DNA of 63,934 bases, filler included, from Stramenopiles sp. TOSAG23-6 (GCA_900128565.1; 28 parts of 28 records of this genome joined end to end with filler, not necessarily neighbours in it), one strand, 5' to 3'; positions 20,694 through 47,075 are shown, counted from the whole stretch's first letter. Numbers and translations are program-made. Notes: generated from the sequence alone by a model not told the origin.

Positions 20694-22471
20694 TATATTG
20701 CACCTGAAAGCACATTACGAATATGATACGGCCATTCTGTCTCTTCGACAGCTATTTATTGTGAAAAATATTTTTTTTTTGGTTAAAAACAGTTGTTAGG
20801 TATGAAATTTTCATAGTAAAAACTTCATTCTCGATGAAAACGTACTTTAGCCAAGACAATTCTGTCGATGTTGATGGAGTAGATTGGAGGAGAGATCCAA
20901 ACTTTGATAGACTATTTCGCATCGCATGGATGTTGGCAATTCCTAAATACTTGATACTAGCATTTTTATAATTGCTATTACTTTCCACGCCACCACCATT
21001 TAAACCATTTGCATACGCCGCTGCTTTGGCTCGACAATCAGCAATTAGCAATTTATTTGATTTTCTATTTGACATTCTGACGGAGGAGAGCAAAAGCTCA
21101 TCTTCTCTATTACGATTTCCTCCAGCACCGACTACACCAAGACCTACCTTTGGTTGTGATGACCTCCACATTGTAGGTCCCTGTATTGTGAAATTCTTTT
21201 TTAAAAAGTAAAAAAAATTGGTTACTACAAAATTTGGTAAAAAAACAAAAACAAAAAAATATTGAAAGTCAAAACATACATTTGGCTGACCTGGGAAACA
21301 CCAAGAGAACGCAGGAATGCGTCCTTTTGAACGAAAACTTGCACATTTCCACATATATAGCGAAAAATATATCACAAAAAAAATCATTAGGTACAAAATG
21401 TTTTGGAAAAAAACAGTTGAAATGAATGATGAAAAAGTACATGGAAGCTTCAGAAAAATCACGCGGCTTGATTAATTGTTCGGGATATGTAGGTGTCATT
21501 CGATACCCATTATTACTAGTTGAAAATACGAACGGCGATGTTTGTGATGTGATTCCAAGACGATTATATTCTTGTACTGCATTGTACTGGTAGGGTAAGC
21601 CATCTGGCGAACTTTCAGTAGTAAGTTGACTAAAAAAACAAAAAGCAAGTTCAACTTTACTAGGAAAAGCCATTGTTTTCAATGTTTGAAGAGCTTTTTT
21701 ACGGGTTTCTTCGCATTTAAACCCAAATACAAGCGTGCGGAGATCTTTACATTTGACACAAATAAGGACTTTTCGCCCATTTTTTGTACTGTGTAATTCC
21801 AATTTTTGGATGCATCCCAAAGGAACGTCAAAATATTTTGGAGGGAAATCGTAGGATTCAGTAGGGAAAAAACGCAGTTGGTATGTAGTACACATCAACT
21901 CACCAGCAACCATTGGAGGAACACCTGGTTCACAACGCAATGCAGCACTAAAAAAATAACAATCTCCTACTTTCATTTCTATCAACAATTGTTCCCCCGG
22001 GAGAAAAGAATCACGGGCATTAAAACTACCCAGGGGCTTTGGCCGATTCCGCGGGAGACCGAGTGCCGATTTAGATCGTGGGCAAACACAAGAAGGGTCT
22101 ACAACATCTACTGCGACATTGTTTTTGTTGCGTTCCGTTGTTTGAGAAATAAGAGAACTAGCAGACACTACAGGTTGACTTCCGACAGGTTCATTTCTGG
22201 TAGTCTTCGTCCTTCCGTGTCTACCTTGGCTTTTAACGCGCTTCGATGCTTTATTGCTCGAATTTAATTTGCGGCCTGATAAATTAGTCTTTGGTGCCTC
22301 TGACATGGATAAAAATGGATTATTCACCAATTCATGATCAAAACTGGCACTGCGATTTATCGCCTTTTTTGCTTTTTCTTCTTTATCCTTTGCTAATTGT
22401 AGTTTTGCATCTTGCGCAGCAAACATTGAGAGTGGGTCGTTCATACTATGTAAGAAAATTCTTGAACTCAA
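20694..22471 (-). CDS. Myotubularin-related phosphatase with GRAM domain, 4 exons (partial)
   Basis: TPTYPEQL, ASFRSKGRIPA, WRSSQPKVG, IADCRAKAAAYAN, IANIHAMRNSL, W..HIRNVLSGA. Confidence 0.92.
20754..20845 (-). other. Family intron, GT..AT; an AG 2 nt downstream is out of frame
   Basis: AA|GTACGT...AATAAAT|A GCT restores SWLK-AVEETEW. Confidence 0.82.
21181..21279 (-). other. Family intron, canonical GT..AG variant
   Basis: AAT|GTATGT...CACAATACAG|GGA. Confidence 0.85.
21353..21440 (-). other. Family intron, GT..AT
   Basis: AT|GTACTT...CTATATAT|G TGG restores EASM-WKCASFRSKGR. Confidence 0.85.
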
Positions 22472-22991
22472 ATTGAGATAGAACAGTTACAGTAATAAAC
22501 ACGTACTTGAATCTAAATACACAAATGTTCAACCAATCGATTTTATAACGAAGATTTTACAACACAACAACGGTACGACAGTAGTAGTAAAAAAAAACAT
22601 CAGAAATTTTCGATGTTTTTTACGATTATTCGATTTGAGCGGATTGACCTCCAAGAAAGCAGCTGTTATAATATACCGATACATAAGTAGGGTTAGGGTT
22701 GTACGTGGCTAAATTCGACATTCGACTATGAAAAATTATTTAAATTCTTTTATTTTTCTTCTTGTAACAAAGTACAATTACTAGCTACAGTATGACTTAA
22801 ACAAAACCTTCCGGCATATCACCAGCAGAATCCCCATTTTTTTCCTCATTCAAAGTCTTATTATCCCTTGTTTCCGGTTCANNNNNNNNNNNNNNNNNNN
22901 NNNNNNNNNNNNNNNNNNNNNNNNNTTAATTAATTAANNNNNNNNNNNNNNNNNNNNNNNNNNNNNNNNNNNNNNNNNNNNAAATTCTACT

Positions 22992-23429
22992 ATGATGCCA
23001 TATTTGAGTTCTGCAGATGGATCAAACTTTTTACGATGTGTTATTAAATATCCTAATGCAGGAAATACATGGGAGTTTCTGGGTATGGAAAAACCGAATT
23101 GGGTAGAAGTTTCATTAAGAAAAAGATGCGAGCAAGCAATATCTTATCGTTGGTCTGTTTCTCGTTCTAAAAACACGGAACAGTTTGACCGTGTCTTTAA
23201 CAATTTATGTCATGCAAGTAATAAAAAAAGACCACGAATATCAAATGGTGATGATGACAATAATGATTTACCTATGAAAATTCTTAAAAAGTGTATGAAG
23301 GATACTATGAAATATAAGGAAGCGATTGCCAGAAGGATTCATAATGACGATAAAAGAAAATTAGAAATAATGCAGAAAAAACTGGAGATAGCTGAATCGC
23401 GACTCCAGCAGTATGAGTCAAAGACATAA
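22992..23429 (+). CDS. Unknown protein, C-terminal part
   Basis: ORF only. Confidence 0.45.
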   Translation: MMPYLSSADGSNFLRCVIKYPNAGNTWEFLGMEKPNWVEVSLRKRCEQAISYRWSVSRSKNTEQFDRVFNNLCHASNKKRPRISNGDDDNNDLPMKILKKCMKDTMKYKEAIARRIHNDDKRKLEIMQKKLEIAESRLQQYESKT

Positions 23430-23481
23430 TTTATTTATTTGTTAAAGTCTCATTCTAAGAATAAACAACCCGAGATAATTA

Positions 23482-23841
23482 CTAATCATTGAATTTTATA
23501 CCCTGTGCTTCGAATTGACTTTTTGCGGCTAATATAGCTTCCGCTCTTTCCATCGAAAACTCGTCTATATTTTCTTGGACAGCATCTTCAAAAGTTGAGT
23601 GTGAAATAGTTTTTGCTTGATTCATCACAGGAATTTCTCCAGTTGCAAAAGCATTCAAACGACCTTCGAAAGCATTTTGCGCAGTTATAGCATCAGCTAG
23701 TTGCTGAGGAGTCATCAAATGGCCTGAGGAGCTTGAAACTTTCGGAGCACTCGTAATGGATTTCTTTAACTCTTCCTTTGACATGGGCGTGAAGTCATTT
23801 TTACTGCTCTTATTCTGAAGATGGACATTAGAACCAGTCAT
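23482..23841 (-). CDS. Small protein with an ARMC6 N-terminal-like motif
   Basis: ISHSTFEDAVQENIDEFSM...AKSQFEAQG resembles the ARMC6 N-terminal motif (recalled, not searched). Confidence 0.5.
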   Translation of the reverse strand: MTGSNVHLQNKSSKNDFTPMSKEELKKSITSAPKVSSSSGHLMTPQQLADAITAQNAFEGRLNAFATGEIPVMNQAKTISHSTFEDAVQENIDEFSMERAEAILAAKSQFEAQGIKFND

Positions 23842-24167
23842 GCTAAGCGATTCCCTACTTTTACTAGAGTAGAATGTACCACAAGTACTTGTGCAATATC
23901 TAGAGCTACACTAGCAGTAAAAATCTTGTTCTACCTAAAACTAAACTTCGAGCATGGTTTATGAGTTTGTTGACGACGACAGTCGCAATAATATTATCAT
24001 GACAGAAACAGTCAAAAAAGTTCACATTACCGGGTACGTACACTAAAAAAAATGGCCAGGTATTTCTTTTGCCAGTCATCTCGACCCAGTCATCCTTCTT
24101 TCCCTTGCGTAAAAAAGCGTATACTCTGTGAGATTTAGCTAGATCCCGAGTTCGCAATTACCCAAGA

Positions 24168-25130
24168 ATGATGATTTTCGACACCATTTTTTTCAGTAGA
24201 GCAGCTGTACAAGTGTACGCTGTAGTTGGAGTCATATGGATTGGTCAGTTTCTATTGAGTCTATTGCTCAACTTTCGTTTTTTCAGATTCTTATGTGGTG
24301 AACGTCGCGTAAATTTCCGAAAGTGTAAAGGTTGGGCTGTGGTGACAGGTGCTACTGATGGAATTGGCAAAGCACTTGCAGTGGAGCTTGCTCGTCGTGG
24401 CCTATCAATCGTATTAATATCTCGAACTCAGTCTCGTTTGGATGCTGCTGCTGCTGAGTGTCTTGCTGCAGGTCCAAAGGGAATAAAGACTAAAACAGTG
24501 CAGGTCGATTTTAGTCTCCAGAATGCGGGAATATATGAAAAGCTAGAAGAAGCTTTACAAGGGTTGAATATTTCTGTGCTCATTAACAACGTTGGTGTCT
24601 CCTATCCACATGCTCAATACTTATGTGAAGTAGATGATGCCGTCTTGGATTCTTTGAGCTCAGTAAATGTAAAGGCAATGATGCGTGTTTCAAAAATAGT
24701 TTTGAAGAACGATTTGATGAAAGCTGGTAGTGTGATAATAAACGTAGCTTCAGGTGCTGGTATAATTTCGAGTGATCCATTGTATGCCGGTTATGCAGGT
24801 TCTAAATCTTTTGTTGATGCGTTTTCTCGATCTCTTGCCGTTGAATTGCGACCAAGGAAAATGTACGTTTTCAAATTTGGAAGTTGAAATTTTTTTTTTG
24901 TACGAAATTTTGTACCTAACAAAAAACAATTCTAAAAATATTTTTTCACAATACATTGTCGTTCAGTGCCATTGCCCTCTTTTTGTTGTCTCTAAACTCG
25001 CAAAAATTCGCAAACCATCATTTTTTGTCCCCACTCCTGCAGATTATGCGACGGTGGCCCTCAATTCAGTGTATGAAGGAAAACGTGTAACAATTGTTCC
25101 TCATTGGCCACATCGATTGCAACTTTACAT
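24168..25130 (+). CDS. Very-long-chain 3-oxoacyl-CoA reductase / HSD17B12-like SDR (3' partial)
   Basis: WAVVTGATDGIGKA, LINNVGVSY, YAGSK. After the intron: IVVQCHCPLFVVSKLAKIRK. Confidence 0.9.
24863..24956 (+). other. Family intron, GT..AT
   Basis: AT|GTACGT...CAATACAT|T GTC gives RK-I-VVQ. Confidence 0.88.
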
Positions 25131-25328
25131 GTATGTTTTATTTTTTTTTCAAATTCGAATTTTTTTTCNNNNNNNNNNNNNNNNNNNNNNNNNNNNNNNN
25201 NNNNNNNNNNNNTTAATTAATTAANNNNNNNNNNNNNNNNNNNNNNNNNNNNNNNNNNNNNNNNNNNNAATTTTGTACCTAACAAATTTTTTATGATTTT
25301 TTTTTTGAAATATTTTTCCAAAATACAT

Positions 25329-27455
25329 GAAGCACACTTGAAACATTTGGAAATTCTATTAAAGCATCATTCACATGCACGTGAGATTATGCTTCATGGT
25401 GATTTAAATGGTGGAACGGCAATGTACATTATACTTAATTTTTTTTGTTTTTTTTTTGTATGCAAATTTTGTACCTAACCAAATATACATATATGTATTA
25501 AATATTTCTTTATAATACAGGACTCTTGCAATTAAGTATAATCAAGAAAATGTTGTGCAATTTTTACTTTCAAATAAAGCAGACATTTACTATCAAAATT
25601 CAAAAACTGGTATGTCGTTTGCAAAAGCAGCATTTCAGTTTGAATATCATTCTGCTGGTTATGCTGGTTTTGCAATAAGAATTTTAAAAGATGGAATACA
25701 ACGTGGAATGTATGATATTCATAAATTAATTTCACAGGATGTAAAAGTATTTTCGTTAATTCCAGATGAAAAGAAAACTGAGAAAATTATCAAAATGGCG
25801 CTTCAAAATGATGTTAACGTATTTACGTTAATTCCAGATGAAATGAAAACTGATGGTATTATCAAAATGGCGCTTCAAAATGAAATAAATGTATTTAGAT
25901 TTATTCCAAATGAAAAGAAAACTGATGATATTATCAAAATGGCGCTTCAAAATGATGGATATTTACTTGATTCTGTTCCTCGAGACAAATTAATAAGACA
26001 AAATCAGGAATATTTAAAACTTGCAATGGATAATCTATTACATAACAAAAAGTCATGGGAAATCAATAACTTATTACAAAAAGGTTTTTTTGGAAAGGAT
26101 TCAAATGGTTCAATGTCAATGAGTGGATTACACCCCAGCTATTACTCTCCTGTACTACCGCATGTAGATAAGCGTGACGTATGTTTTATTTGTTTTCAAT
26201 CGAATTTCGAATTTTTTTTTTTCGTACGAAATTTCATACCTAACAAATTTTACAAAAAAAAATATTTTTTTCACAATAGTTGAAACAATTTCTCAGTCAA
26301 ATGCCACAGCAAGTAAGAGACGATATCAATGCTACTCAAAGAATATGTCATGTGAAAACGATGTACGTTTTCATTTCAATTTCGAATTTATTTATATTTT
26401 TTTCGTACAAAATTTTGTACCTAACGAGTTTTTTTTTGAAATATTTTTTCGTAATCTATGGATAAAGATTATACTAGCATTATAAATGAGTTTTTCCCAG
26501 ATTTGATTCTGCATCAATATTCTGAGCAAGAATTGAATAATTTAATAATAAAAGGATATTCAATTGAAGCTATTGATACCGCCATACAACGATTCCCAAA
26601 CAATAATAAATCCAATCTACTTCCAGCGACGGATTTGCAAAATATTGAAGAATATGTACGTTTTCATTTCAATTTCGAATTTATTTATTTTTCGTACGAA
26701 ATTTCGTAGCTAATAATTTTTTTTTTTAAATATTTTTTCAAAAGACATTTAGCCGATGGGGGAGGTACGGATGATAGTGGCTTCGTCGATAAAGTTGATT
26801 CATCAGAAGATCAGCTGCACAATCCTCTTTTACATGTACGTTTTGTTTCAGATTTTATCAATTTAAAAAAAAAACATTGTATAATATTACCAATTTACCA
26901 ATTTAAAAAAAAAAATCACACCTACGCTCAAATCAAATCCAAAATTTTTATACTTTTTTATACCTAACATTTTAAAGATTTTAAAATTATTTTTTACAAC
27001 ACATGTGAATAAAGAAAATGGTAAAAACAAACGATGTGTTACGCTTACTGACCTTAGTACTGCGCAGAAGGCCAAAGAAGAAAAAGTTTTGTTTGGTGCT
27101 ACCGATGAGCAAATTCAATGGAAACAAAAACATTTTGAATTTGTAATGGAAAAATTTGAAAAAATGAAAATGGACTATCAGATACAACAACGTAGAAGAA
27201 TCCCTTCGGGGAATTATAAGATTGATAAAATTGAATATTGTGATAATGAAACATTGGAAAACAAATACAAAGCCTTTTCTTCTCGTATATATCAGCAAAA
27301 GAAGAACACGAATGAAATGTGGTTATTTCATGTACATTTTCATCATGAATGAATTTATTTAAATTATTTTTTTTTGATTTTTTTTTGTAGTAAATTTTGT
27401 ACCTAACAAAAAACATTTTTTTTTTTTTTTTTTCACAATACATGGAGGCCCCTTA
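25329..27455 (+). CDS. Ankyrin + DUF4116-like repeats + UBA-like + PARP-like catalytic domain protein, at least 7 exons (partial)
   Basis: GGTAMTLAIKYNQENVVQFLL, IPDEKKT..IIKMALQND repeats, KIDKIEYCDNETLENKY...NEMWLFH|GG. Confidence 0.7.
25424..25520 (+). other. Family intron, GT..AG variant
   Basis: AT|GTACAT...AATACAG|G ACT. Confidence 0.82.
26179..26279 (+). other. Family intron, GT..AG variant
   Basis: GAC|GTATGT...CACAATAG|TTG. Confidence 0.8.
26363..26459 (+). other. Family intron, GT..AT
   Basis: AT|GTACGT...AATCTAT|G GAT. Confidence 0.82.
26656..26748 (+). other. Family intron, GT..AT; an AG 4 nt downstream is out of frame
   Basis: TAT|GTACGT...AAGACAT|TTA GCC. Confidence 0.8.
26836..27004 (+). 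other. Family intron, GT..AT (long)
   Basis: CAT|GTACGT...ATACCTAAC...AACACAT|GTG. Confidence 0.8.
27332..27443 (+). other. Family intron, GT..AT, splitting the PARP LFHG motif
   Basis: TTT CAT|GTACAT...AATACAT|GGA. Confidence 0.88.
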
Positions 27456-27555
27456 NNNNNNNNNNNNNNNNNNNNNNNNNNNNNNNNNNNNNNNNNNNNT
27501 TAATTAATTAANNNNNNNNNNNNNNNNNNNNNNNNNNNNNNNNNNNNNNNNNNNN

Positions 27556-28217
27556 GCAGCTTCCACTTTAGCATTCAATGCGTTAACTCCCGCTTCGGCC
27601 TTAGCTTCCATGGCTTCCAGCTTCCAACAATATTGCTTTTTGCTTTTCGTTGTACCATTTTCACGCTGCAACGAGAGCACAACTGGAAAATCAACATGAA
27701 GTTTGAGTCCCAACTCAAAGTCAGCAAGACTTCGACTAATACGACGAATTGCGCGAAGTGCTGGAATGCGAATACTTGAACTAGAATCAAGGGCCGCTGT
27801 GCGTAATGCTATCAACAACTGCTCTCGTTTTTCATCTGGACAAGACCAAGCTCTTTGCTGACACTTTGTCACAAAATCTGCAAGTATTGCAGCTCTACTT
27901 GGAGTTTTCGATTGTCTTTCGATGCGTAGTTTTGGTGTACCCTCTTGAGTACTAGGATCTATTTCTTTATTAGAAGAGTCGAGTTCTTTACCAGGAGAAT
28001 AATGATAATTAGAGTTCTTTGGAAATTTACCACTACTAACTGGAGGTGCAAAATATGAAATGACGTTTGTGGTTGCGTCATCAGATAAACTATCTGCTTC
28101 TGGTAAGAGATTTTCGTCTGAAGTACTAACACAACGCAGACCCCTCAACCCCTTATTCCTAGACAATGGGCTAGCCCCTGGTGATATAGTAGCATTTCCA
28201 GGGCTTTGCTCATTCAT
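27556..28217 (-). CDS. RICTOR-like N-terminus (partial)
   Basis: IRIPALRAIRRI...LHVDFPVVLSLQRE resembles the Rictor N domain (recalled). Confidence 0.5.
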
Positions 28218-28514
28218 TTTGACCTTTAACGAGATGATGCACTAAATTATGATCTCCCTTCTTTTGTTTGGCCATTTTGTTTGATAACACGTCGACAAGC
28301 GTAGGTTTGTTTTTTTTTATAATATTTCGTGTATTATATACTAATTTACTAACTAGAAATTTTGTTATATTTTCACCAGCTGACATGCTACATGCTTGAC
28401 TGACGCCAGCTCAAAGGAACGTCAGCCAGTGAACGTATCGATTTGCTACTTACTTTTTTGTGTGCACTTCATAAGTTTATCATTTACTATATTTCGCTAA
28501 ACTTAAAGCTTTAA

Positions 28515-29578
28515 ATGTTCAACATGTTACTATATGCAGTATTACTCATTGCCGTGTACGTGGTCGAAGGAGGCAGAGAAGGTTTTCATGAAAGTCATGG
28601 AACGTGTGCGGGTTTGTTCAAGCACCATATAATGGAAGAAACTGGAGTTTGCTACAAAAAAATTAATCCCTTGTTGTCTCGTAATGACTGCCCAAACGGT
28701 AACCCCGGTTGTGACTGCGGTGGATATGACTTCACAAAGGGATCCGTTTTAAATTTTGAGGAAACAGATACAGAATGTTGCTCGGCGTTGTTGGATATAC
28801 AGGAGGTATGTTTCTGTCCATGTTGTAGTAAGTTGGAGAGATATCAGAAACCAGCCACGCTTGCATATATTGCGCTGTGCAAAGGACAAACTACTGCGAG
28901 AGAAGCCGCATTGAAAACTGAAGTGGAAGCTGTGGCAGCAAGGGAAGCCGCATTGAAAACTGAAGTGGAAGCTGCGGCAGCAAGGGAAGCCGCCGCATTG
29001 GAAGCTAATTTCGAAGCGGAAGCTGCCGCATTGAAAGCTAAGAAAGATTTGGAAGATATGAAAAATAAACGAGAAGCTCACAAAGTGCAAGTACATGCAG
29101 CAAAAATAATTCAAAAAGAATGGCGTGCGAGAGCTGCGAAGAAAGATCAAGATCGCAAAAACACAGAAGAGAAGGACGGATTTTTCTCATCAAAACGATT
29201 GATATTATATGCTATTATTGGAGGAGCTTTACTTTTTGTGCTTGTTGTATTTATTCTCTGCTGGTGCCGACGGAATAAAAATGTTGAGAAAAGGAAGTTA
29301 ACTATTAAGGAAGGAAATGTATGTTTTATTTTTTTTCAAATTCGAATTTTTGTTTCGTACGAAATTTTGTACCTAACGAATGTTTTTTCAAATATTTTTC
29401 CAAAATACATGCGTCGAGAGTCGTCCATCGAAAACATCACATGGAACCACAGGTAATACAAAAACCAGTGAAGAACTTAAACTGGTTTAAGTTTGGGTTC
29501 CTAAAAACACGAGAAACACCTGCGAATGGCGTTGTAAATGGCGGTAACAGTATTAGTGATAAATGTATACCAGTGTAA
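28515..29578 (+). CDS. Type I membrane protein: Cys-rich ectodomain, AAREAALK repeats, TM; GT..AT intron at 29319-29410
   Basis: Signal peptide and TM LILYAIIGGALLFVLVVFILCW. AAT|intron|GCG joins in frame. Confidence 0.7.
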
Positions 29579-29742
29579 TATGTGGTATGAATGGTTGTGA
29601 TAAATGTATACCAGTGTAATATGTGATATTAATGGTTGTGATAAATTTGTACTACTGTAATATTATTAAGAATAAATAATACTGGTAGTGATAAGGTGGT
29701 GATAAATTTGTATTATTGTAAAGAATAAATAATAATAGTGGT
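29556..29742. repeat. Degenerate ~41-bp tandem repeat (GTGATAAATGTATACCAGTGTAATATGTG...)
   Basis: Seen directly in the sequence. Confidence 0.7.
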
Positions 29743-29987
29743 NNNNNNNNNNNNNNNNNNNNNNNNNNNNNNNNNNNNNNNNNNNNTTAATTAATTAANN
29801 NNNNNNNNNNNNNNNNNNNNNNNNNNNNNNNNNNNNNNNNNNGGGGGGGGGGGTGTCTGACGACAAAAAAATAAGATTTCTCCTGTGCGCCTTCCTTCCT
29901 GTGTCGGTTGTCGCTACACACAAAGATCCCTTGTTGTTCTGTATCTACTATATCAAGTAACTGGATCCAGATTTATCCAAAAAAAGA

Positions 29988-31019: not shown

Positions 31020-31959
31020 ATGTTCTCGCGCCAGGCTATTTTAAGAAGTAATGCTAATATTTTTAAGCGACTATATTCTGTGAAAGCATTAAAAAAGACT
31101 CCATTACATAGTTTGCATATTTCTATGAAAGCATTCATGACAGGCTTTGGCGGTTGGGACATGCCACTTTATTATGAGGATGGAATAATGAAGGAGCACG
31201 TTCACTGCCGTACTGAAGCTGGGCTTTTCGATGTGTCTCATATGTTGGGAATAAAAATCACTGGATCTGATCGTGTATTATTTGCTGAAAAATTTCTCCC
31301 CGCAAATGTTGCTGAGCTTGCAGATGGGCATGGTTGCCTGACAAATATTCCTAACTCTGAGGGCGGACTCATTGATGACTGTATCATTACAAACGCCGGT
31401 GATCATCTTTTTCTTGTAATAAACGCTGGACATGAAGAAAAAGATGTTCCACACATGCATAAGATATTAGATAGTTTTGATGGAGATGCTCATTTTGAGT
31501 TACAAGAAGGAAAAGGCATTCTTATACGTTGAATCTAAAAAAAAAAAAAAAAAAAAAAAAAATCCTAAAAAGCAGTTTGTACCTAATGTTTTTTTTACTA
31601 TTTTTTTATTTTCACAATACATGCACTTCAAGGCCCTAAAGCGACTTCTGTATTAGAAAGACATACTTCCAATGTTGACTTTAGTACGTTTGGATTCATG
31701 ACAGGTCGTTCAATGTCAGTGTACGTTTTTATTTGAATTTCAAATTTATATTTTTTTTTTTGGTTTTCATACAAAATTTTGTACCTAACAAAAAAAATCT
31801 AGACAATATTTTTTCATCTATATGAATGGCACTGAATGTTTTGTGACCAGAAGTGGCTATACAGGAGAAGATGGATATGAAATTTCTGTTGCTGGGGATC
31901 ATACCGAAGCTTTAGCAAAAACATTACTCGGAGAACCTGAAGTAAAACCAATTGGACTT
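31020..31959 (+). CDS. AMT: Glycine cleavage system T protein (aminomethyltransferase), mitochondrial, 3 exons (partial)
   Basis: KTPLH, FGGWDMPLYY, GLFDVSHM, GIL|ALQGPKA, VTRSGYTGEDGYEI. Confidence 0.95.
31524..31622 (+). other. Family intron, AT..AT
   Basis: CTT|ATACGT...GTACCTAAT...CAATACAT|GCA restores GIL-ALQGP. Confidence 0.88.
31721..31823 (+). other. Family intron, GT..AT
   Basis: GT|GTACGT...TCTATAT|G AAT gives MSV-NGTECFVTRSGY. Confidence 0.85.
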
Positions 31960-32129: not shown

Positions 32130-32966
32130 CTTTATACAGTAGTAGTACTGCGCTGGCGATTTTTTGTACGAAATTGTATACCTAACAAAATTTTGAAATT
32201 TTTTGAATTTTTTGTACAATATATGACGATCCTTTAGTGATTTTATCGGACAGTATATTCAACGAAAACATGGTACATTAAAATCCATTATTGATGGATC
32301 TATTTTAGGTACTCATTATGGGTTGGAGTATAGTACCATTGGACAGAGCGCGCGTATTGGGGGTGCAAAAGAGAGATGGGTTGTGGTACGTTTTCATCAT
32401 GAAATTATAGTAAAAAGAATAATATTTTTTTTTTCGTAGTACATTTCGTACCTAACAAATTTTAAAAAAAAATGAAATTGTTTTTTTCACAATACATGTA
32501 GGAAAAGAAAAAAAAGATAATATTGTTTTATGTGCTCCTGGTTTAAAACATCCTTCTATTTATTTTCGTACTATTTATTTACAAAAGTCAGAAATCTGTT
32601 GGATATCAAAAAATGGACCTCCAAGTGATTTGTGTATGTTTTATTTTTTTTCAAANTTNAANTTTTTTTTTTTNGNTTTTCGTACGAAATTTTGTACCTA
32701 ACAAAAAAATTTAGATTTTTTTCAAATTCGATTTTTTTTCAAATTCGATTTTTTTTTTTTGGTTTTTTATAAAAATTTTGTACCTAACAAAAAAATTTAG
32801 ATTTTTTTAAATATTTTTCCAAAATACATACCATAAAAATGGAATGACTGTTTTTTATAGAATTCGTCATGGCCAAAAATTAGGTAAATGTCGTATTCTA
32901 TTGGAAAAAAAGAATTCATCAGATATTCAATACACAAAATATACACAAAATATACAATCAAATACA

Positions 32967-33011
<45 letters not shown>

Positions 33012-33152
33012 GAATTATTTCGTGTTGAATTGGAATTGCCTCAAAGAGCAGTGTCGCCAATGCAAGTGATTGCATTTTATTCAAATAGCTGTGGAGAAAT
33101 ATGTTATGGAGGTGGGCCAATATGTATGTTTTATTTATTTTTTTTTTTTTTC

Positions 33153-33196
<44 letters not shown>

Positions 33197-33248
33197 CAAA
33201 AAAAAAAAATTAAAAAAAAAAATTTTTTTTTTTAATTTTTTTTTTTTG

Positions 33249-33292
<44 letters not shown>

Positions 33293-33433
33293 GAAAAAAA
33301 AAAAAAATAAATAAAACATACATATTGGCCCACCTCCATAACATATTTCTCCACAGCTATTTGAATAAAATGCAATCACTTGCATTGGCGACACTGCTCT
33401 TTGAGGCAATTCCAATTCAACACGAAATAATTC

Positions 33434-33478
<45 letters not shown>

Positions 33479-34315
33479 TGTATTTGATTGTATATTTTGT
33501 GTATATTTTGTGTATTGAATATCTGATGAATTCTTTTTTTCCAATAGAATACGACATTTACCTAATTTTTGGCCATGACGAATTCTATAAAAAACAGTCA
33601 TTCCATTTTTATGGTATGTATTTTGGAAAAATATTTAAAAAAATCTAAATTTTTTTGTTAGGTACAAAATTTTTATAAAAAACCAAAAAAAAAAAATCGA
33701 ATTTGAAAAAAAATCGAATTTGAAAAAAATCTAAATTTTTTTGTTAGGTACAAAATTTCGTACGAAAANCNAAAAAAAAAAANTTNAANTTTGAAAAAAA
33801 ATAAAACATACACAAATCACTTGGAGGTCCATTTTTTGATATCCAACAGATTTCTGACTTTTGTAAATAAATAGTACGAAAATAAATAGAAGGATGTTTT
33901 AAACCAGGAGCACATAAAACAATATTATCTTTTTTTTCTTTTCCTACATGTATTGTGAAAAAAACAATTTCATTTTTTTTTAAAATTTGTTAGGTACGAA
34001 ATGTACTACGAAAAAAAAAATATTATTCTTTTTACTATAATTTCATGATGAAAACGTACCACAACCCATCTCTCTTTTGCACCCCCAATACGCGCGCTCT
34101 GTCCAATGGTACTATACTCCAACCCATAATGAGTACCTAAAATAGATCCATCAATAATGGATTTTAATGTACCATGTTTTCGTTGAATATACTGTCCGAT
34201 AAAATCACTAAAGGATCGTCATATATTGTACAAAAAATTCAAAAAATTTCAAAATTTTGTTAGGTATACAATTTCGTACAAAAAATCGCCAGCGCAGTAC
34301 TACTACTGTATAAAG
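32130..34315. repeat. Whole-contig perfect palindrome centred at 33222/33223 (probable fold-back artefact)
   Basis: The second half is the exact reverse complement, including the N positions. Mirrored ORFs 32844-33314 and 33131-33601. Confidence 0.95.
32225..33123 (+). CDS. TRMU: tRNA 2-thiouridylase, C-terminal exons; GT..AT introns at 32386-32497 and 32634-32829
   Basis: FSDFIGQYI, ILGTHYGLEYSTIGQSARIGG, RIRHGQ, PQRAVSPMQVIAFY, CYGGGPI. Confidence 0.88.
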
Positions 34316-36601: not shown

Positions 36602-36701
36602 NNNNNNNNNNNNNNNNNNNNNNNNNNNNNNNNNNNNNNNNNNNNTTAATTAATTAANNNNNNNNNNNNNNNNNNNNNNNNNNNNNNNNNNNNNNNNNNN
36701 N

Positions 36702-37718: not shown

Positions 37719-38862
37719 ATGAAGCTAAATTTAAGCGTGTTGTTTTTGCTCATAAGTGTAAGTGTAGCAACGAGACCAAACGCATTGAGTGAAAATGGAT
37801 TTTCTCTTTTACACAGTGTACGAAATAATTACACTGATAATACTACGCTCTCCCGGGCAAAACAGAAGACAACTACGATACTTCTTGACCGAATAAAAAA
37901 GGAATGGATGATGGCTCTGCTTAGTGGGCAAGATGAGGTAAATGAAATCAGGAAGTCGGTGATTTTCGTACAGAGAGAAAAATCTAAAAATGAGCCCATA
38001 CACAAAGAATCATATCTCGCGTCAAAACTCAAAGGTAGAAAGCTACATAACTATGTGGTAAGTGGTCAATATGGATCGACTGGTTGGTTTAAATGGGCGG
38101 CTACACCTGGTATGTCTAGTGAGTATGTGGTGGCAACAGATCAACATGCTACAAAAACTAATGCGTACTATCGTATGAATTTGTCGAGCGATTATTTTTA
38201 TATGGAGATTGGACCTGGTCACAAGAACTCCAGCGGAGAGTACGATGCCGTAAATTATAGTGAAGGAAAGCTGCCAAATCTGCCAACAGGTAGCCCTAGA
38301 TGTCAAGGTGGGGTTCCTCGTTATTGGAAAAATTTTCCAACACATGCAAACGACCAATGTTTTTCTCATTACTTTAGAATGCTGTATGGCAAAAGCCTTT
38401 GTAAATTGCCTAGTTGGATAAGGAACTGGTGGAAAAATTACTACAAAAAGTGCTTTTACGAAGGAAAAGACGCTGCGTATGAATTTCAGTGGCATCGTTA
38501 TATGGCGGGGCGACCAAACCACTGCCGAAAACATACAAATGCTGGAGTTTACAGGGAACAAGCTGGCGAAAGGTGTTGTGTGAACCAGAGATTCGCAAAG
38601 CATTCTTTAAAATCTCACGAAATGTATCTTGAATACAAATGCCTACCAGGTTCGTATCAACAGGAAAATTCTAACCCAATGTTTCCAACTTACCCAGAGG
38701 GCACTTGTAATCGAAACGCTTTTTCAAATAGTAGACAATGTAATTTTGGACAATATTCGAAAGGGGGATTTTTTTCATCCGGAGAAGACGAAAAAAGTAC
38801 ATGTATTGATTGTCCAACAGGGAAATATCAAGATCAACAAGGGCAGTCAGAATGTAAAACCT
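37719..38862 (+). CDS. Secreted protein entering ephrin-receptor-like Cys-rich repeats (partial)
   Basis: Signal peptide and CIDCPTGKYQDQQGQSECKT. A family donor GTACGT is at 38863. Confidence 0.7.
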
Positions 38863-39028
38863 GTACGTTTTCATTATGAATTTCAATNNNNNNNNNNNNN
38901 NNNNNNNNNNNNNNNNNNNNNNNNNNNNNNNTTAATTAATTAANNNNNNNNNNNNNNNNNNNNNNNNNNNNNNNNNNNNNNNNNNNNTGCGTCAAACGAT
39001 ACCAAAAGATAAACAATTATTCAACAGT

Positions 39029-41169
39029 GTGCACAGCCGGGGTAAAATCCAACGTCTGTGGCATATAATCGATAACAGCAATATTGGGTATATTACACTT
39101 ACTGAGGTTATAGATTTCTTGATAAATGTGAAGGAATTTTCCCGTTTCAATAATCTTGTTGCTGTAAAGTGTGCGTTTGATTGTACTGTCCATAATATTA
39201 GTGCACGAACCGATGGCACCTTGGGAAGGCACGACTTTCCATCACTACTAAAGAACATATATTACATAGATACCCTATTCACAGTATTTGGTGTCTCGCT
39301 TAATTCCAAAATTGACTTCGATGAGTTTTCTCTAGGTCTTGAAAAACTCGGTGTATCTGCCATTCCTGTAGAGGATAGAAGAAAAATATTTTCTTCTATA
39401 TCCAATAATGGTAATAGTGATTATATACTTCTTAGCAGGCTTTGTGATTATACTTGCCGTCAAGCACAATCTCTATCGAAAAATCCCCCGCGCACAAAAA
39501 ATAATAAATACTTTAAAAAACATTGGGTTGCAATATTTCAGCAACCAATTTTTGACATTCAAACTATGAGTCCATTACTTGGTACGGGAAGTAAAATTTT
39601 AGTGAACAGTGAAAATAAAACCGAAGAATCCAACAAATCCGAAGATACCACTAAAATACATAAGGTACGCGAAGAAAGGGATTCGAGGTTCGCAACGGAT
39701 GATCCTTCAGATGAGAAAGTAGATTCTAAACCAATTAAAAATGAAAAAATCAGCAATAAATTGAAAAAAAGCATGAGTAAATTCAAAAATGCCAGACTTT
39801 TTGCAATAAAAGCTTCTTTATTGGCAAAAGCAAACGCTAAACAAAAAAAAAGCAAAGTTCTGTATCATGTAAAATCTAGGAAACTTAAGCTTCCACAAGT
39901 TGAAGTAAAAGAAGAATTTTCGGAGGAAAATTTCGAAGCAGATCGACAAGCTCATCAACGGGCTTTAGCTTCTGCGCTGAGTACACTTCCTTGCTATGAA
40001 TTATCCGTAGATAATTTTATTCGACATTGTGTGTCATCACTTGGTATATTGAATCAGTTGCCGTGCAAAGAGCTATGTGATGAAAATAGACAAGCTCACC
40101 GAAATGCATTACAAGATGTGCTAGCTATGCTTCCCTGCTCTGAAATGTCGAAAGCAAATTTTCTTCTACATCAAAATGCTTTGCTTGGCGTGTTGAATCA
40201 ACTACCTTGTAATGAGCTATCGAATGTAAATAGAGAAGCACACCGAGTTGCAATGCTTGGAATATTGAGTAATCTTCCTTGTAAAGAAATGTCACTGAAT
40301 AACTTCATTCTACACCAGCGAGCTTTTCGAGGCGTATTGAGTCAACTGCCATGTAATGAACTATCTAATAAAAATAGGGAAGCACACAGAATTGCGATGC
40401 TTGGTATTTTAAGTTATCTTCCATGCTCGGAAATGTCAGTAGCTCACTTTATACTACACCAACAAGCATTACGTGACGTATTGAGTCAATTACCATGTAA
40501 TGAATTATCTGGTTCGAATAGAGATGCACATACAATTGCCATGCTAGGTATATTGAGCACACTCCCATGCTGGGAAATGTCAGAAATTAATTTCGTTCTA
40601 CATCAACAAGCTTTTCGTGGTGTATTGAATGATTTAATTTTCACTCATGTCTATAGTCCAAACAGAGAAAAACACAGAGTATCCATGCTGGGAATACTGA
40701 ATAGTCTTCCTTGTTGGGAACTATCTGCTGTAAACAGGGAAGCACACAGAATTGCGATGCTTTATATATTAAGTACTCTTCCTTGTTCTGAAATGTCAGA
40801 AGCAAACTTTATCATACACCAACAAGCTCTACGAAGTGTATTGAGTCAACTACCGTGCAATGAACTATCTGCTGTAAACAGGGAAGCACACAGAATTGCG
40901 ATGCTTGGTATATTAAGTACTCTTCCTTGTTCTGAAATGTCAGAAGCAAACTTTTTTCTACATCAACAAGCTTTGCGAGATGTATTGAGTCAGCTACCTT
41001 GCAATGAACTATCTGTTGCAAATAGAGAATCACACAGAATTGCGATGCTTGGAATATTGAGTCAACTACCTTGTGATGAACTATCTGTTGCAAATAGAGA
41101 AGCACATAGATTGACGATGCTTGGAATATTGAGTAGCCTTCCTTGTTCCGAAATGTCCGAAGCTAATTT
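39029..41169 (+). CDS. Calflagin-like EF-hand protein with ~17 copies of a 24-aa LPCxExSxxNxxxH repeat (partial)
   Basis: LWHIIDNSNIGYITLTEV, FPSLLKNIYY; alternating A/B 24-aa units. Confidence 0.75.
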
Positions 41170-41269
41170 NNNNNNNNNNNNNNNNNNNNNNNNNNNNNNN
41201 NNNNNNNNNNNNNTTAATTAATTAANNNNNNNNNNNNNNNNNNNNNNNNNNNNNNNNNNNNNNNNNNNN

Positions 41270-42300
41270 AAGCATGTATTGTGAAAAATATTTTTTTTTT
41301 TGGTTTAAAAAAAATCGTTAGGTACAAAATTTCGTACGAAAAAAAAATGTTGGTAAAAAAAATCAATTTTGAAAACGTACAAGCTGCGTATGTTTCTGAG
41401 TTCGTCAATACATTCAAACTTGCGGCAGCTGCTTTAAATTCTCTATTGGTTTTTGCAGTTTCTAAATCCGTCATGAGAAGTTTGTAGTTTGTAGAAACTG
41501 TTGTAGCTTTAGAAGCTTCGCACGAAATACTTTGTTTTGTCACTTTTGTTGCTGGGGTGTCTTTTAAACTTTTTCCGGTTTGATCAACGAATTTAAATCC
41601 TCCAGTCGTTGCATCACCAGCCAAAAAAGAAAATTCCAAAGTTCCATCTGCATCACATTTTGCCAATTTTTCTTTCGTCAACGTAGTGGGATACTTTTGA
41701 CCATTATGAACGAAATCAGTAAACATAACAAAAGCTACTTTTCCTTTTTGAAAAACTTGTTTTCCGGTTTTGGCTCCAAATTGTTGGAACAATGCTTCTT
41801 GTGGTTGTTCAGAAGGCTGGACAGTAAATAGAGTGCTTACAGGTGGACCATTGTTTCTTGCATTTGTAAGCGTATCGGAGCCACAGCGAATTTGAAAGTT
41901 GCCGCTCCATAAACTTGCAATTAATGTGAAAGAGTGTCCTTCGTGCTCTNNNNNNNNNNNNNNNNNNNNNNNNNNNNNNNNNNNNNNNNNNNNNNCTCGG
42001 GTCAACTTTCATTTCTTTTATCCACGATTTGATGTTTTCTTCGGAACTGTCGGAAGATATGCGATAGATTTTACTATCTGTAAAGCCATCAGAATGCTTT
42101 TGATTTGGATCCTGTGTTAAGGAATCGGCAAGCTGAAGATAAATATCCTTGCTGTCCTTCGTAACACATTGTACAGATACGAGGCTTCCTGACATTCCGT
42201 CCATGTTAAAGGAACCTGAACGGTATGTGCATTTGTCCATACCCATCGCACTTACAAAACATAAGCAAATAACATAAGATGTGAGAATATATCTCATCAT
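41270..42300 (-). CDS. Secreted protein of unknown function (internal gap); GT..AT intron at 41274-41380
   Basis: Signal peptide MMRYILTSYVICLCFVSAMG. Confidence 0.55.
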
Positions 42301-43039
42301 TTGGGAACTCAATGAAAAGTAATTACAATTCAATGAGTTTGATATACTAGCTCGCTTTTTCGTTTTCATCGAAACTCGGCAAACTGCAAATCCTCGCAAA
42401 CTCGCTCCAAATTGACTCCTCCGACTCCTCCTGATCGATGCGCGGGAATTTTTTTGAACAAACCTGCTTGATTTTCCGTGGCGCGTCATATTCGACAATG
42501 ATATCAAATGCTCTGTTACTATGTATCATATTGTTCTGCACTGTCGTTTCAACATCATATGCCGCACTCGAAGGCTTATAGCAAATCAGGGGTTTATATT
42601 TAAACTTCCTGGGTGACTATTCTTTTAAGCTTAAACAAATAAATATATATGTAAATATACAAGTGTTCAGAATTGTGTTTTATTGTATTATAATGTAAAT
42701 GGTTAATATGCACTGGCTATAATGTACAGCCATTGCAGATTTCAACCATGACTAATATAAGAATGAGATTCTGAGATTTCTCTCGAAATCTCTAAGTATT
42801 TTTATCTCTTTTTATGGATAAACTACTCCAGTATCTTTGACTAAAAGATACCGTATCTTTCTAATTTGGAATTTCTATTTTTGAATAAAAATAATAAATT
42901 CATAAATTGAAATTAAAGATAGAATGATAATTTAATTAAATGAAATTAATCAAATATTAATTTCAAATATATAATTAATTAAATTAGATTTTCTATAGGC
43001 TTTGGACTACCTCCTAGGCACACTCCGCGGGAAACCGAG

Positions 43040-43395
43040 TTGCATAAGCTTGATTTCTTCAGATTAAAGGCAAAAGTCAAGGACCAAATCAAGAAAAGAC
43101 GCTATAATAACTTACAGAGTCTAGTGATTCCTGGGAAACCATACATGAATCCCCTTATTGCTAAGAAAATATCTTCATATGTAGGGTGGCTTGATGAGCG
43201 TGGTAAACCTAGCGAATCGAAGGTGTTTCACAGAATGTTTACTGACTTCAATCAACCATTGTTGATTGCTGCACGCGATGGCCTTGTTGGTCGTGTGAAA
43301 ACATTAATTGATGCTGGAGTAGACGTAAACCAACAGTCTTATAGGTACGGTGGGATCTATGGTCTGCCACAAGGTAACACTTCGTTGTCTTTAGC
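43040..43395 (+). CDS. Ankyrin-repeat protein (partial)
   Basis: PLLIAARDGLVGRVKTLIDAGVDVN...GNTSLSLA. Confidence 0.7.
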
Positions 43396-43641
43396 TGTAC
43401 GTTTTCTTCAAATTTTAATTTTTTTTTTGGTACTACATGTTGTGCCTAAGNNNNNNNNNNNNNNNNNNNNNNNNNNNNNNNNNNNNNNNNNNNNTTAATT
43501 AATTAANNNNNNNNNNNNNNNNNNNNNNNNNNNNNNNNNNNNNNNNNNNNAAAAAAAAAAAAAAAAGAGAAAGAACAAAACACGAACAGTTTTTTTTGTT
43601 CTGTTCGTATCTTTTCATCTTTTCGATGAGCAGCAAATCAA

Positions 43642-45730
43642 ATGAGAGAAGATTTAAAGGATTATGATGAGCAATTGCGGATAAGCACTGCAATCAAGGA
43701 AAAATCGGGTTGCGCTGTTCAAGGAGTCCATCCACATGTAGATTTGGACTTGTCAAATCGTCTTTCAAAGAAAAATAGAGTATATTTTCCAGATTGTCCA
43801 AAGGAGCTACACAGTGTGTCGAAAGAAAATGATACCCAAATACTGAAGAGTCGCCAATATAATTTACATATCATTAGAGCGAGCAATGTAAATCTCCCAA
43901 AACTTTCGAAACTTGAAAAACTTGAAGAATGGACTTCGCGTATCTATATAAAAGGACATGGTCGCGAAGGTATTTGTTCTGAAGTCTATTCGGTGGATGA
44001 TGAAGGTATGGTACCATTTGATTTTTGCTATACAGTTGAAGATTCAGAAGAAGAGACACTCAATGTTTCCCGCACAAATGGAATTGAAGTTAAAGTGGAA
44101 TGGAAATCTCCTAAGAAATCAATACTCGGTAGATGTAGAATTCCTTTCAGTGACTTTCGAAAAACGAAAAGAACTAGAACATTCAATCTATTTGGAGCAA
44201 GTAATAAGAGTTATAAGAGAGTAAAAAATTTAGGGCAAGTGAAAATTGAGTTTAACCTAGAAGGATCATTGGTGTTCTCTCTTCCTCTTGGTGGGCCATT
44301 TGGTATCCTCCCTTTAAATAGGAAACTGTCTTGCCATAAATTAGTCCCTTGGGCAGAACCGCTATTTTTAGCAGTAGGTTCTACTCAACTCCCTCTAAAT
44401 GAATTTGTGATAAAACAGGTTCCAGACATTATTGCAAGCCATGCCCTAGGTACTAAACATTCGTATTTACAAAGAGGTGATTTGATTTTAACATCGCATC
44501 GCATTTTATATCTTCCGTACAGTCTGCCTGGTATGAGTTCAAAAAATATGAATAAAACAGAAGAAAATGTTACAATTCATGATATAAATAAAGACACAGA
44601 TGGTCTACATCATCCCCTCACCATGCCGTTGTCAAGCATTCATCTGATACTCTATGCAGATTGTCAAGAAGAGACAGGGGAAGTTATATCATTAGGAAAA
44701 ATACGAGTCTGGCGCAAAACAATTCAATATACAGAATTTCATGCATCCAACAGAATTTCGTGTCTAACACTAAAAAGAATTGTTCACGAAGTTTATGTAC
44801 GGTGCCAAGAACGAAACTTTTACCGCACTTCAGAAAATTCAAATGATTATGAAGTTGAACGACAAAATAATTATGTGGATGGAAACATTCGTTTTTTTCC
44901 AAGGCTAGAGACACATTACACACCACCATGTCCTAGTGTAACTAAAATATTACTTGCAGATTATGCCCGAATGTATGCTGTAGAGAGTAATAATTGGCGC
45001 GTCACAAAAGTAAATACAAATTATGATTTGTGTACGTCTTATCCTCCGATCTTTTGTATCCCTTGCAATGTTAGCGACGAAACCCTAAAGACTGTAGCAA
45101 TATGCTATGATAAAAATCGTTTTCCTCTGCTATCATGGATTCATCCCACTATGAAAACATGTATTTACCGGTCTGCTCAAAAAATAACAAATGACCAAAA
45201 AGCAATGAACGCTGATGAATTTTTCGTAAAAGCTCTACAAATGAAAGGTACAATACTTACTTTCGATGTACGATCCCGCCTGGATGCTACTTATAATAAG
45301 ATTACAAAAGGTGCATCATTTGATCCAAATCAAACCTTCTTTCAAAACATTTACTCCTCGCATCTTTTAAGTCGTTTGTTCGATGATGTAATGGTGGAAT
45401 CAGTAACAAGAGAAAATACTGGTGAACATTTGCCACCAATGATGCTTTCCAAAGATGGAAAAGACAAACAGCCAATTAGTACGTGGCTGCATCAAGTTCG
45501 AATGTTATTGCACAGTTCTTGGATAATTTCGTCAAGACTTGAAGACGGATATTGTGCACACATTCATTGTTCTCATGGATGGGATAGAACAACACAGATC
45601 AGCTCTCTTGCACAGTTAATTTCAGATCCATATTATCGTACAATTAAGGGGTTTCAAGTTCTAATACAGAAAGAGTGGTTGGCTTTCGGTCACAATTTCA
45701 ACACTCGAACGGCGTATCTCCCTCTAGCAT
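43642..45730 (+). CDS. C2-GRAM-myotubularin phosphatase (partial)
   Basis: LCTSYPPIF, RFPLLSWIHP, HIHCSHGWDRTTQISSLAQL, DPYYRTIKGFQVLIQKEWLAFGHNF. Confidence 0.92.
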
Positions 45731-45862
45731 NNNNNNNNNNNNNNNNNNNNNNNNNNNNNNNNNNNNNNNNNNNNTTAATTAATTAANNNNNNNNNNNNNN
45801 NNNNNNNNNNNNNNNNNNNNNNNNNNNNNNTTTTACAAAAAAAATATTTTTTCACAATACAT

Positions 45863-47075
45863 GATGTGTTGTCTTTTAATACACACATTGGAATCTATCA
45901 TAGTCGTGTTTTGGTTTTGTGACAAGAAGAAAGGAAATACAAAACTTTCATATCATCTTTATTTTGAAACAATATTAACTTGGACTTCGCTTTTAGCTGA
46001 ATTATCTGTCCAAATAATACATAGCCCAAGTAAAAGTGTATATTGTATGACATTTTTACCCATAACTAGAGGTTTTCGAGTGCTTCGTTTACTCACAGTA
46101 TCGTCATACTTTGATAGAATGTGGAGGGCAATTGTTGTTGCAGTACCAGTTCTATTTGCTCTTTCAGCAGTTTGGTTAGGTCTTACATATTCATACGTAA
46201 TTGTTGGTATGGAACTATTTGGAAAAATTGGTGATAAAGAAGCACTTGCAGGAGAAGTTGATGATTATGCTCCTTTTGGTAGGAATATAGGTAGACTTAG
46301 AATAAATAAAATGCTTCATCAAATTGAAAGAAATAAAAATCCTGCAGCAGATGCATTTGTAAATCACCAACATGTACGTTTTTGTCATTAATTTCCAATT
46401 TTGTTTTTTCGTACGAAATTTCGTACCTAACAAAAAAACAACCAAAAATTTTTTCACAATACATGCACTATTTACTGGTTTTGCATCAACATTAGGTCTA
46501 CTTTGGCAATTGACAGTATCGAATAATTGGCAAGATATGTACGTTTTCACTATGAATTTGAATTCTTTTTACGACGAAAATTTTTTACCTCACGAATTTC
46601 AAATTTCAAATATTTCTTAGGACACATAATGCATCCCAACATTGAGCGTACGAGTCAATACTATTCCTGGTATTTTACAACTTATTATTGGTTATGCCAT
46701 ATGTTCCTATTAGATGTTATTATTGGTGTTGCGATTGATGCTGTACAAAATTTAGATGATGAAGATAATAAAGTGAAAGATAAAGTCAATGAGGGAGGTA
46801 ATCGCCATTCTAGCATATCTAGTTTAGATTACAATACTTCTGGTCTTAGTTGGAATTCACTTTTAGGTTTTTCTGAAGACGTCACAATAGAGAATGTTCT
46901 CAAAGAGGACCACAAAATGGTTGATGGAATGACAGCAAAGTTGACTGCTCAATCAAGAGAAATAGCATACGATACATTTTCAGATCAAACGTCTAAAGCG
47001 GCAAAACTTTGGAAAAAAGCCATCACTGCAGCCATGTCACCTAAAAAGTTTCCTCAACTTCACCAAAAAGACTAA
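45863..47075 (+). CDS. Two-pore/voltage-gated cation channel C-terminus; GT..AT introns at 46374-46464 and 46539-46627
   Basis: S4-like RGFRVLRLL, YVIVGMELFG, pore LTVSNNWQD-I-M, FLLDVIIGVAIDA. Confidence 0.8.

Follow-up and report, generated by a model that had tools for sequence, protein, structure and literature searches.

A repeated intron family that ends in AT instead of AG, probably U2-type and introner-like

Introns ending in AT have been described on a large scale in the Fritillariidae tunicates where, according to Soo et al. 2026 (PMC13326754), no other intron end is as common as 3′AT, which makes up 44% in F. pellucida and 34% in F. borealis. These introns finish with a YAY triplet (Y, pyrimidine), which is often present before the 5′ site as well, and they keep a T-rich tract. 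The same paper reports that the major spliceosome removes these introns, that F. borealis has duplicated, divergent U2AF subunits, and that 5′ ends are mostly non-GT (AG/AC, AG/AT), with GT/AG accounting for only 5% of introns. Fritillaria introns also have inverted repeats and target duplications according to a review (PMC11282704), and a transposon origin has been proposed for them. Here we analyse a 63,934-base stretch of DNA (the window; 33.7% G+C), in which nearly all introns belong to one repeated family of 90-110 bases, most copies of which end in AT. These AT ends are real splice junctions, and we consider it likely that the introns are U2-type, form a single introner-like family, and have their 3′ site picked by motif and position and not as the first AG.

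Counts below refer to a curated set of 33 introns with both ends visible, from which masked copies and mirror duplicates were left out. The family resembles the Fritillariidae introns in its 3′AT, with YAT in 27 of the 28 AT introns, in the (A)T that precedes the 5′ site (18-27 of 33), and in a likely mobile origin. The combination of a YAY end with the same triplet before the 5′ site is found here as well, but position -3 of the exon is a pyrimidine in only 16 of 33. Unlike the Fritillariidae introns, with their mostly non-GT 5′ ends, these have GT in 32 of 33, with G at +1; the GTAYGT is strong, the branch site resembles that of yeast, and the departure from the rule is limited to the last base. 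Furthermore, all copies are of one sequence family, and the host is neither a larvacean nor any other tunicate by its GcvT tree.

Introners, reportedly described by Huff in 2016, are transposon-derived intron families. As in introners, there are many similar copies here in unrelated genes, in an aquatic protist, in the sense orientation only and with short direct repeats at the junctions. However, introner surveys accept AG or AC as 3′ ends and drop families with unfamiliar ends unless transcript-supported (Gozashti, PMC12130899), and in the window neither a transposase nor clear inverted termini were found. Literature searches gave no paper tying GT-AT to introners and, among the titles and abstract openings listed, no genome with GT-AT as its main class, although GT/AT classes may be described for Fritillaria.

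Canonical U2-type GT-AG introns with a yeast-like TACTAAC branch share with the family the GTAYGT start, CTAAC, the T-run and A at -2, and five of the 33 end in YAG, whereas the last base is T in the other 28 and AGs between branch and end are passed over. GT-AT and AT-AT ends are also known from Physarum, where they make up 17% and 8%, respectively, of 1,014 introns classed as U12 among 1,425 non-canonical ones (bioRxiv 10.1101/2020.10.12.336362). Unlike those, the introns of the window have no [AG]TATCCTT 5′ motif and no branch site 10-12 nucleotides (nt) from the end; a U12-type assignment was rejected on that missing motif and on a branch site lying 34-46 nt, and not 10-15 nt, from the end.

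One intron family and its end signals

A scan for GTANGTT showed the introns to be copies of one sequence, beyond merely having alike signals. With an nhmmer profile built from 23 copies there were 51 family matches in 64 kilobases (kb), five of them mirror copies from a fold-back, and the curated family introns are spread over more than nine separate gene segments. Pairwise identity among 24 complete copies has a mean of 68% (range 53-87%), and three blocks are conserved: 9 bases at the start, ~22 bases that close with the branch motif, and 14 bases at the intron end. With carets marking the cuts, the aligned layout is (AT)^GTAYGTTTTCAT..AATTTCGAAT..TTTTTTCGTACGAAATTTTGTACCTAAC..A/T-rich spacer..AAATATTTTTTCACAATACAT^G.

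The 5′ end is GTAYGT-like, with G at +1 in 32 of 33, T at +2, A at +3 and T at +6 in all 33, and G at +5 in 28, and has the U1/U6-complementary, GTRAGT-like character of a U2-type 5′ splice site. The branch motif is CTAAC in 25 introns, CTAAT in three and a variant in five (CTCAC, ATAAT, GTAAC, CCAAC, and TTAAC as the inner one of a tandem pair); together with a pyrimidine tract, T being present at -14 to -11 in 24-31 of 33, it is again as expected of U2-type introns. The terminal AG of that type is what the family lacks: in the same aligned column the end dinucleotide is AT in 28 and AG in five, the last three bases being CAT (20), TAT (7), AAT (1), CAG (4) or TAG (1). The initial annotation had named AT as the acceptor, which stands for these 28 introns and is amended by the AG-ending five. 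A at -2 is invariant (33/33) and A at -4 is found in 31, the 3′ site lies inside a 14-nt motif, TTTTCA[C/A]AATACAT^G, and ATATTT is present in the tail of 19 of 27 introns. From the branch A to the intron end there are 34-46 nt in 29 introns, in agreement with the ~35-45 nt previously claimed, and 51, 60, 73 and 136 nt in the others, the last being the tandem pair. On the exon side, T at -1 (27/33), A at -2 (21/33) and G at +1 (21/33) are common, and the upstream exon ends in AT in 18.

Several copies have unusual arrangements. The branch-site block is tandemly duplicated, giving two CCTAAC motifs, in introns 5722-5931, 32634-32829 and ~2785-2950. At 56571-56767 two family introns abut (...ACAT^GTACG...) with zero exon between them, and their joint removal restores an IscA-like frame; this could be either one 197-nt intron or two-step splicing via a zero-length exon. 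A replaces G at +1 (ATACGT or ATATGT), with a CAT end, in 31524-31622 and in introns near 8746, 9000 and 2785. Only that at 31524 is fixed by homology, and the other three permit equal-length GT...AC readings; the intron near 2785-2950 and the donor near 8744-8746 have several equal-length readings that keep the frame and are not placeable to the base. A non-family, intron-like stretch from 28301 to ~28385 starts with GTAGGT, continues with ACTAATTTACTAAC and ends in CACCAG, and from its sequence may be an older conventional GT-AG intron.

The introns are as follows, with coordinates in the window, strand, ends and the evidence for each:

2531-2639, plus strand: intron of a FIGNL1-like AAA ATPase gene, GTAGGT...TAT (tail ATAT); FIGNL1 chains contiguous over the junction; AGs at -31, +7 and +10 out of frame
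5433-5539, plus strand: family intron, GTATGT...CAT; open spliced frame
5722-5931, plus strand: family intron with duplicated branch-site block, GTATGT...CAT; open spliced frame
6602-6706, plus strand: family intron, GTACAT...TAT; nhmmer match, frame test gives no information
7085-7202, minus strand: intron with GTAAGT donor and family 3′ half, ending in CAT; frame test gives no information
11058-11127, minus strand: short family intron of the AP-3 beta gene, GTATAT...CAT; frame in order, 79 + 571 open codons
20754-20845, minus strand: family intron of a myotubularin gene, GTACGT...AAT (AAAT); junction gapless against MTMR2, AG at +2 out of frame
21181-21279, minus strand: family intron of a myotubularin gene, CAG end; curated, gene-level frame
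21353-21440, minus strand: intron of a myotubularin gene, GTACTT...TAT; open spliced frame
24863-24956, plus strand: family intron, GTACGT...CAT; alignment, frame test run
25424-25520, plus strand: family intron, CAG end; curated
26179-26279, plus strand: family intron, TAG end; open spliced frame
26363-26459, plus strand: family intron, GTACGT...TAT; open spliced frame
26656-26748, plus strand: family intron, GTACGT...CAT; open spliced frame, AGs at -4 and +4 out of frame
26836-27004, plus strand: longer intron with family ends, GTACGT...CAT; open spliced frame
27332-27443, plus strand: family intron before a PARP-like WLFHG motif, GTACAT...CAT; polyA contig of run X1
29319-29410, plus strand: family intron, GTATGT...CAT; frame test in order
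31524-31622, plus strand: GcvT intron with A at +1, ATACGT...CAT; tblastn, three homologues, gapless GIL^ALQGP
31721-31823, plus strand: GcvT family intron, GTACGT...TAT; tblastn gapless MSV^NGTECF, split codon GT+G encoding a conserved Val
32386-32497, plus strand: intron of a transfer RNA (tRNA) 2-thiouridylase-like gene, GTACGT...CAT; open spliced frame, AG at +4 out of frame
32634-32829, plus strand: family intron with duplicated branch-site block, ending in CAT; sequence and frame tests
41274-41380, minus strand: family intron, GTACGT...CAT; downstream side masked
46374-46464, plus strand: intron of an ion-channel gene, GTACGT...CAT; open spliced frame, no AG between branch+10 and +30
46539-46627, plus strand: intron of an ion-channel gene, GTACGT...CAT; AT end open, TAG at -7 gives stops, prior exon matches the TPC2 pore helix
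50416-50507, minus strand: family intron with candidate junction, GTACGT...CAT; downstream side masked, stop 3 codons past the junction
50783-50879, minus strand: family intron, GTATGT...CAT; frame in order, 106 + 98 open codons
54234-54327, plus strand: family intron, GTACGT...CAT; frame test gives no information
56328-56423, plus strand: intron of an iron-sulphur (Fe-S) assembly, IscA-like gene, ending in TAT; open spliced frame
56571-56674, plus strand: first of the abutting pair, ending in CAT; open frame on removal of the whole of 56571-56767
56675-56767, plus strand: second of the abutting pair, GTACGT...CAT; nhmmer, joint frame
59881-59993, minus strand: intron with family 5′ half, CAG end; frame test gives no information
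61199-61319, minus strand: family intron, CAG end; frame test in order
61784-61875, minus strand: family intron, GTACGT...TAT; only 22 nt visible downstream
61936-62038, minus strand: family intron, GTATGT...CAT; open spliced frame

The AT ends are splice junctions

That the AT ends are real junctions follows from reading frames, homology over the junctions, the position of the 5′ cut and an RNA contig. When introns were tested one by one, 13 of the 16 informative ones joined long flanking frames (binomial P ~1e-4), and the three misfits, exons of 60-83 nt between two introns, were resolved when whole genes were spliced. Gene-level splicing of nine segments with 22 introns, 20 of them AT-ending, left eight segments stop-free, with 8-54 stops in the other two frames. 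In the ninth segment, g50, the frame is interrupted once, by a stop that lies seven codons before the segment's end and follows intron 50416-50507, which is masked downstream. Four of the 22 introns (at 20845, 27332, 61875 and 50507) were weakly tested by this approach, with little downstream sequence visible.

Individual junctions were compared with homologues. The GcvT exons align gapless over both 31523^31623 and 31720^31824 with three homologues, whose identity in the first aligned stretch is 56-61%, and the exons flanking 2531-2639 match FIGNL1 structures contiguously, up to residue 251 and from 252 in 3d8b, and up to 223 and from 224 in 4l15. The 20754-20845 junction, SWLK^AVEETEWPYHIRNVLSGAI, is gapless with MTMR2 in an alignment read by eye; here a 20-residue exon piece gave no match in the PDB, the preceding exon has a PDB match that ends 13 residues short, and a myotubularin paralogue in the window is too divergent for its alignment to reach the junction. 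In the ion-channel gene, the 24-residue exon before 46539-46627 matches a TPC2 pore helix ending in NNWQ, marginally in score (E 0.5) and exactly in the motif, and only the AT end of this intron keeps the frame into the last transmembrane helix. The 5′ cut is likewise set at G+1, as three exons that do not end in AT (CT at 2531, TT at 31524 and GT at 31721) keep their conserved P, L and V, respectively, only if the cut is unshifted.

RNA sequences were compared with 25269-27455, small shares of which were present in two marine metatranscriptomes; the exons of the first four introns in this stretch had no RNA cover. A 151-nt contig from a polyadenylated (polyA) library, run X1, equals 27246-27332 without difference and then continues in letters absent from the intron (join 27332^27444). 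Nine of the 12 visible letters after ACAT^ agree with this continuation, including the first four, GGAG, which the next AG acceptor would delete. We take the contig as modest support for the AT junction at 27332-27443. Run X2, a seawater RNA library, matched almost nothing but the family repeats: the summed depth over the intron family reached ~14,000 at an exon depth of 0-4, which fits thousands of genomic copies being present as pre-messenger RNA, excised introns or carried-over DNA. Apparent joints in X2 were ruled out as splicing evidence, being cross-matches between intron copies.

Passed-over AGs and the choice of the 3′ site

It had been proposed in the initial annotation that nearby AGs are bypassed for AT in 20754-20845, 26656-26748, 46539-46627 and 2531-2639, and all four introns were found at these coordinates with the neighbouring AGs described. 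The AG 2 nt downstream of 20754-20845 breaks the frame and would yield an unrelated, soon-terminated peptide, use of the TAG 7 nt upstream of the end of 46539-46627 gives many stops, and the internal CAG of 2531-2639, 31 nt upstream, is followed by TAA. The AG 4 nt downstream of 26656-26748 is out of frame, as is a second AG 4 nt upstream, which we add.

The proposal also extends to the family as a whole, as 7 of 27 AT introns pass over an AG lying between branch+10 and the intron end, and an AG occurs no more than 10 nt from the end in 17 of 28. In introns 2531, 31721, 26656 and 46539 the AG passed over lies 14-31 nt past the branch A. The sole in-frame upstream AG, at -21 in 31721-31823, would add seven residues absent from homologues. 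Scanning for the first AT was ruled out too, with an average of 3.7 AT and 1.6 YAT skipped. An AG-exclusion check had been suggested with the annotation and, run on the tails in the window, it gave 12 AGs against 17.8 expected from shuffles (P ~0.05), a weak depletion in tails with only 4% G; a strong exclusion zone was not seen in the family tails in this comparison. On the exon side, 9 of 28 AT introns are followed by an AG whose last base is exactly 10 nt inside the downstream exon (2531, 5722, 6602, 24863, 26836, 29319, 31524, 32386 and 56328), out of frame, against ~1.7 expected per offset from 52 AGs at +2 to +31; the Poisson P for this excess, estimated by hand, is ~1e-4, or ~4e-3 when corrected for 30 offsets.

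In the mechanism that we favour, a strong 5′ splice site, GTAYGTTTT, and a branch site formed by the TACCTAAC block and followed by a T-run would be recognised conventionally, and the intron would be cut after the YAT that closes TTTTCA[C/A]AATACAT^G, ~34-46 nt past the branch A. Because five AG copies carry G at the column where the others have T, the host machinery would take T and less often G as the last base (YA[T/G]), with A at -2 obligatory, and the site would therefore be picked by motif and position, not as the first AG. Removal would be by the major spliceosome with a re-tuned 3′ splice-site reader underneath, for which the candidates are a factor resembling the U2AF small subunit and the contacts that the last base makes with G+1 in the second step. 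In spliceosome structures A-2 is in contact with the branch adenosine, as is the last base with G+1, and the invariant A-2 and relaxed last base fit this picture of contacts. Judging from 31524-31622 (ATACGT...CAT), A at +1 with T at -1 is also tolerated.

In the annotation the 3′ site was taken to be set by the ATAYA motif plus distance or structure. The conserved 14-nt motif and the narrow branch spacing support a role of motif and distance, RNAalifold found no conserved pairs among 24 copies, and the reading given in the annotation is on the whole partly supported at the level of sequence. It appears improbable that RNA structure joins the intron ends and sets the 3′ end, as in the nonconventional introns of euglenids and diplonemids. 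The last six bases, ATACAT, are complementary to GTAT together with the exon AT before it, forming a palindrome of 5-6 base pairs, and base-paired ends are reported for diplonemid introns (PMC12621601). Nevertheless, position tables of the 33 introns show no covariation between the two ends of this palindrome: C is found at +4 in 19 but A at the partner position, -6, in 28, and AG-ending copies keep the A at exon -2. The 5′ site and branch site are, moreover, fully conventional, and membership of the euglenid/diplonemid class was rejected on these uniform ends and the absence of RNAalifold pairs.

We consider it highly improbable that the AT ends are unused, with nearby AGs spliced through compensating donors or the AT copies retained in decaying genes. 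An AG lies between branch+10 and +30 in 25 of 28 AT introns, in frame in nine, and direct RNA evidence is thin; yet the remaining 19 have no in-frame AG within reach, three of them having no AG at all. Homology is gapless over five junctions (2531, 20845, 31524, 31721 and 46539), eight of nine segments are open only with AT ends, and the X1 contig keeps the letters that the next AG would remove.

Scarcely credible, too, is a reading of the family as AT-AC introns, in which both cuts would lie 2 nt upstream (ATGTAYGT...ATAC), restoring a compatible pair of first A and last C. U2-type AT-AC introns are known (Sheth 2006, PMC1557818), and where the upstream exon ends in AT, as in 18 of 33, the spliced product is identical. 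In the 15 others, however, it is not, and the shift would replace the P at 2531, the V at 31721 and the L at 31524; furthermore, five copies end in AG at the same column, and GTAYGT fits the U1/U6 register with G at +1.

Least credible of all is DNA-level removal in the style of ciliate internal eliminated sequences. The elements here are short, AT-rich, numerous and bounded by short direct repeats, and they lie within coding sequence; as against this, the family has a full set of spliceosomal signals at fixed spacing, ends that are not TA, a host with the standard code, and abundant sequence in an RNA library, where DNA carry-over is possible.

Returning to U2-type removal of one introner-like family, which would descend from a transposon-derived element, a transposon origin is probable on the copy number, the sense-only orientation, the AT(G) direct repeat at both junctions, the duplicated branch blocks and the abutting copies. 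No coding (autonomous) copy of such an element is present in the window, and the ends show an imperfect palindrome of 5-6 nt. We infer the introner origin, since no transposase, clear inverted termini or polymorphism has been shown.

Several points weigh against the interpretation as a whole. All intron counts come from one 64-kb window, 4.5% of which is masked, and the RNA support is one low-depth metagenomic contig (depth 4.9) with a 9/12 match that a strain difference or paralogue could explain. T at exon -1 in 27 of 33 introns and AT-ending exons in 18 mean that messenger RNA cannot there separate GT..AT from a cut shifted by 1-2 nt. Conservation of the 3′ motif may partly stem from common descent and not from function, and in the window there is no transposase, no clear inverted terminus, and no target-site duplication beyond the AT(G) repeat.

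Host genes and a shifted 3′ splice site

Genes are dense on both strands of the window and use the standard code. They include a fidgetin-like AAA ATPase, AP-3 beta, two myotubularins, an Ank/DUF4116/PARP-like gene, GcvT, a tRNA thiouridylase, an ion channel, EF-hand/WW proteins and an IscA-like protein, among others. Masks of N44 + TTAATTAATTAA + N44 recur every ~2.3 kb, in addition to a few longer runs of N, and hide parts of at least 10 family introns. At 32130-34315 there is a perfect 1,093-nt inverted repeat without spacer (arms 32130-33222 and 33223-34315), which spans the whole stretch between two masks and mirrors part of the tRNA thiouridylase gene and its introns, single-N positions included; this looks like a fold-back artefact of assembly or amplification. 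An Rfam search of the window gave no matches.

The best named relatives of GcvT are those of chlorarachniophytes, haptophytes, a ciliate and Euglena (50-58% identity), with environmental sequences at 73-82% and no animals among the best 120 matches. FastTree placed the window sequence in an environmental clade adjoining chlorarachniophytes, a weak placement from one gene. Matches of AP-3 beta are a mixture of animals and protists at 23-40% identity, a word-based search with the myotubularin open reading frame gave no match, and a protein atlas returned generic WD40 clusters only. We take the DUF4116, Ephrin_rec_like and EF-hand/WW architectures to be compatible with a protist host. On these gene sequences we treat the host as a marine protist and not a tunicate. 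In metagenome contigs of the Joint Genome Institute (JGI), an exact 20-nt core of the family had no matches and a gapped pattern had 34 loci, none of which fit the family profile; viral contigs scanned for the family gave no matches.

A terminal AG is among the most conserved eukaryotic gene signals, and in Fritillaria, the only well-studied large-scale 3′AT exception, both intron ends and U2AF changed together. As a serious but still tentative possibility, the window may come from a lineage of protists, without kinship to tunicates, whose major spliceosome now reads YAT in place of YAG across the genome, with textbook 5′ and branch sites; the change would be carried by one introner-like family, perhaps tens of thousands of copies strong. 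If so, almost all genes of the host genome would be broken up by standard gene finders with an obligatory AG, and introner surveys limited to AG or AC ends would miss the family. A change confined to the last base, with G kept in a minority of copies, would isolate the question of 3′ splice-site recognition, and the lineage would offer another natural experiment, independent of the first and much 'cleaner', on the reading of the last base, be it through its contact with G+1, the U2AF small subunit or second-step factors.

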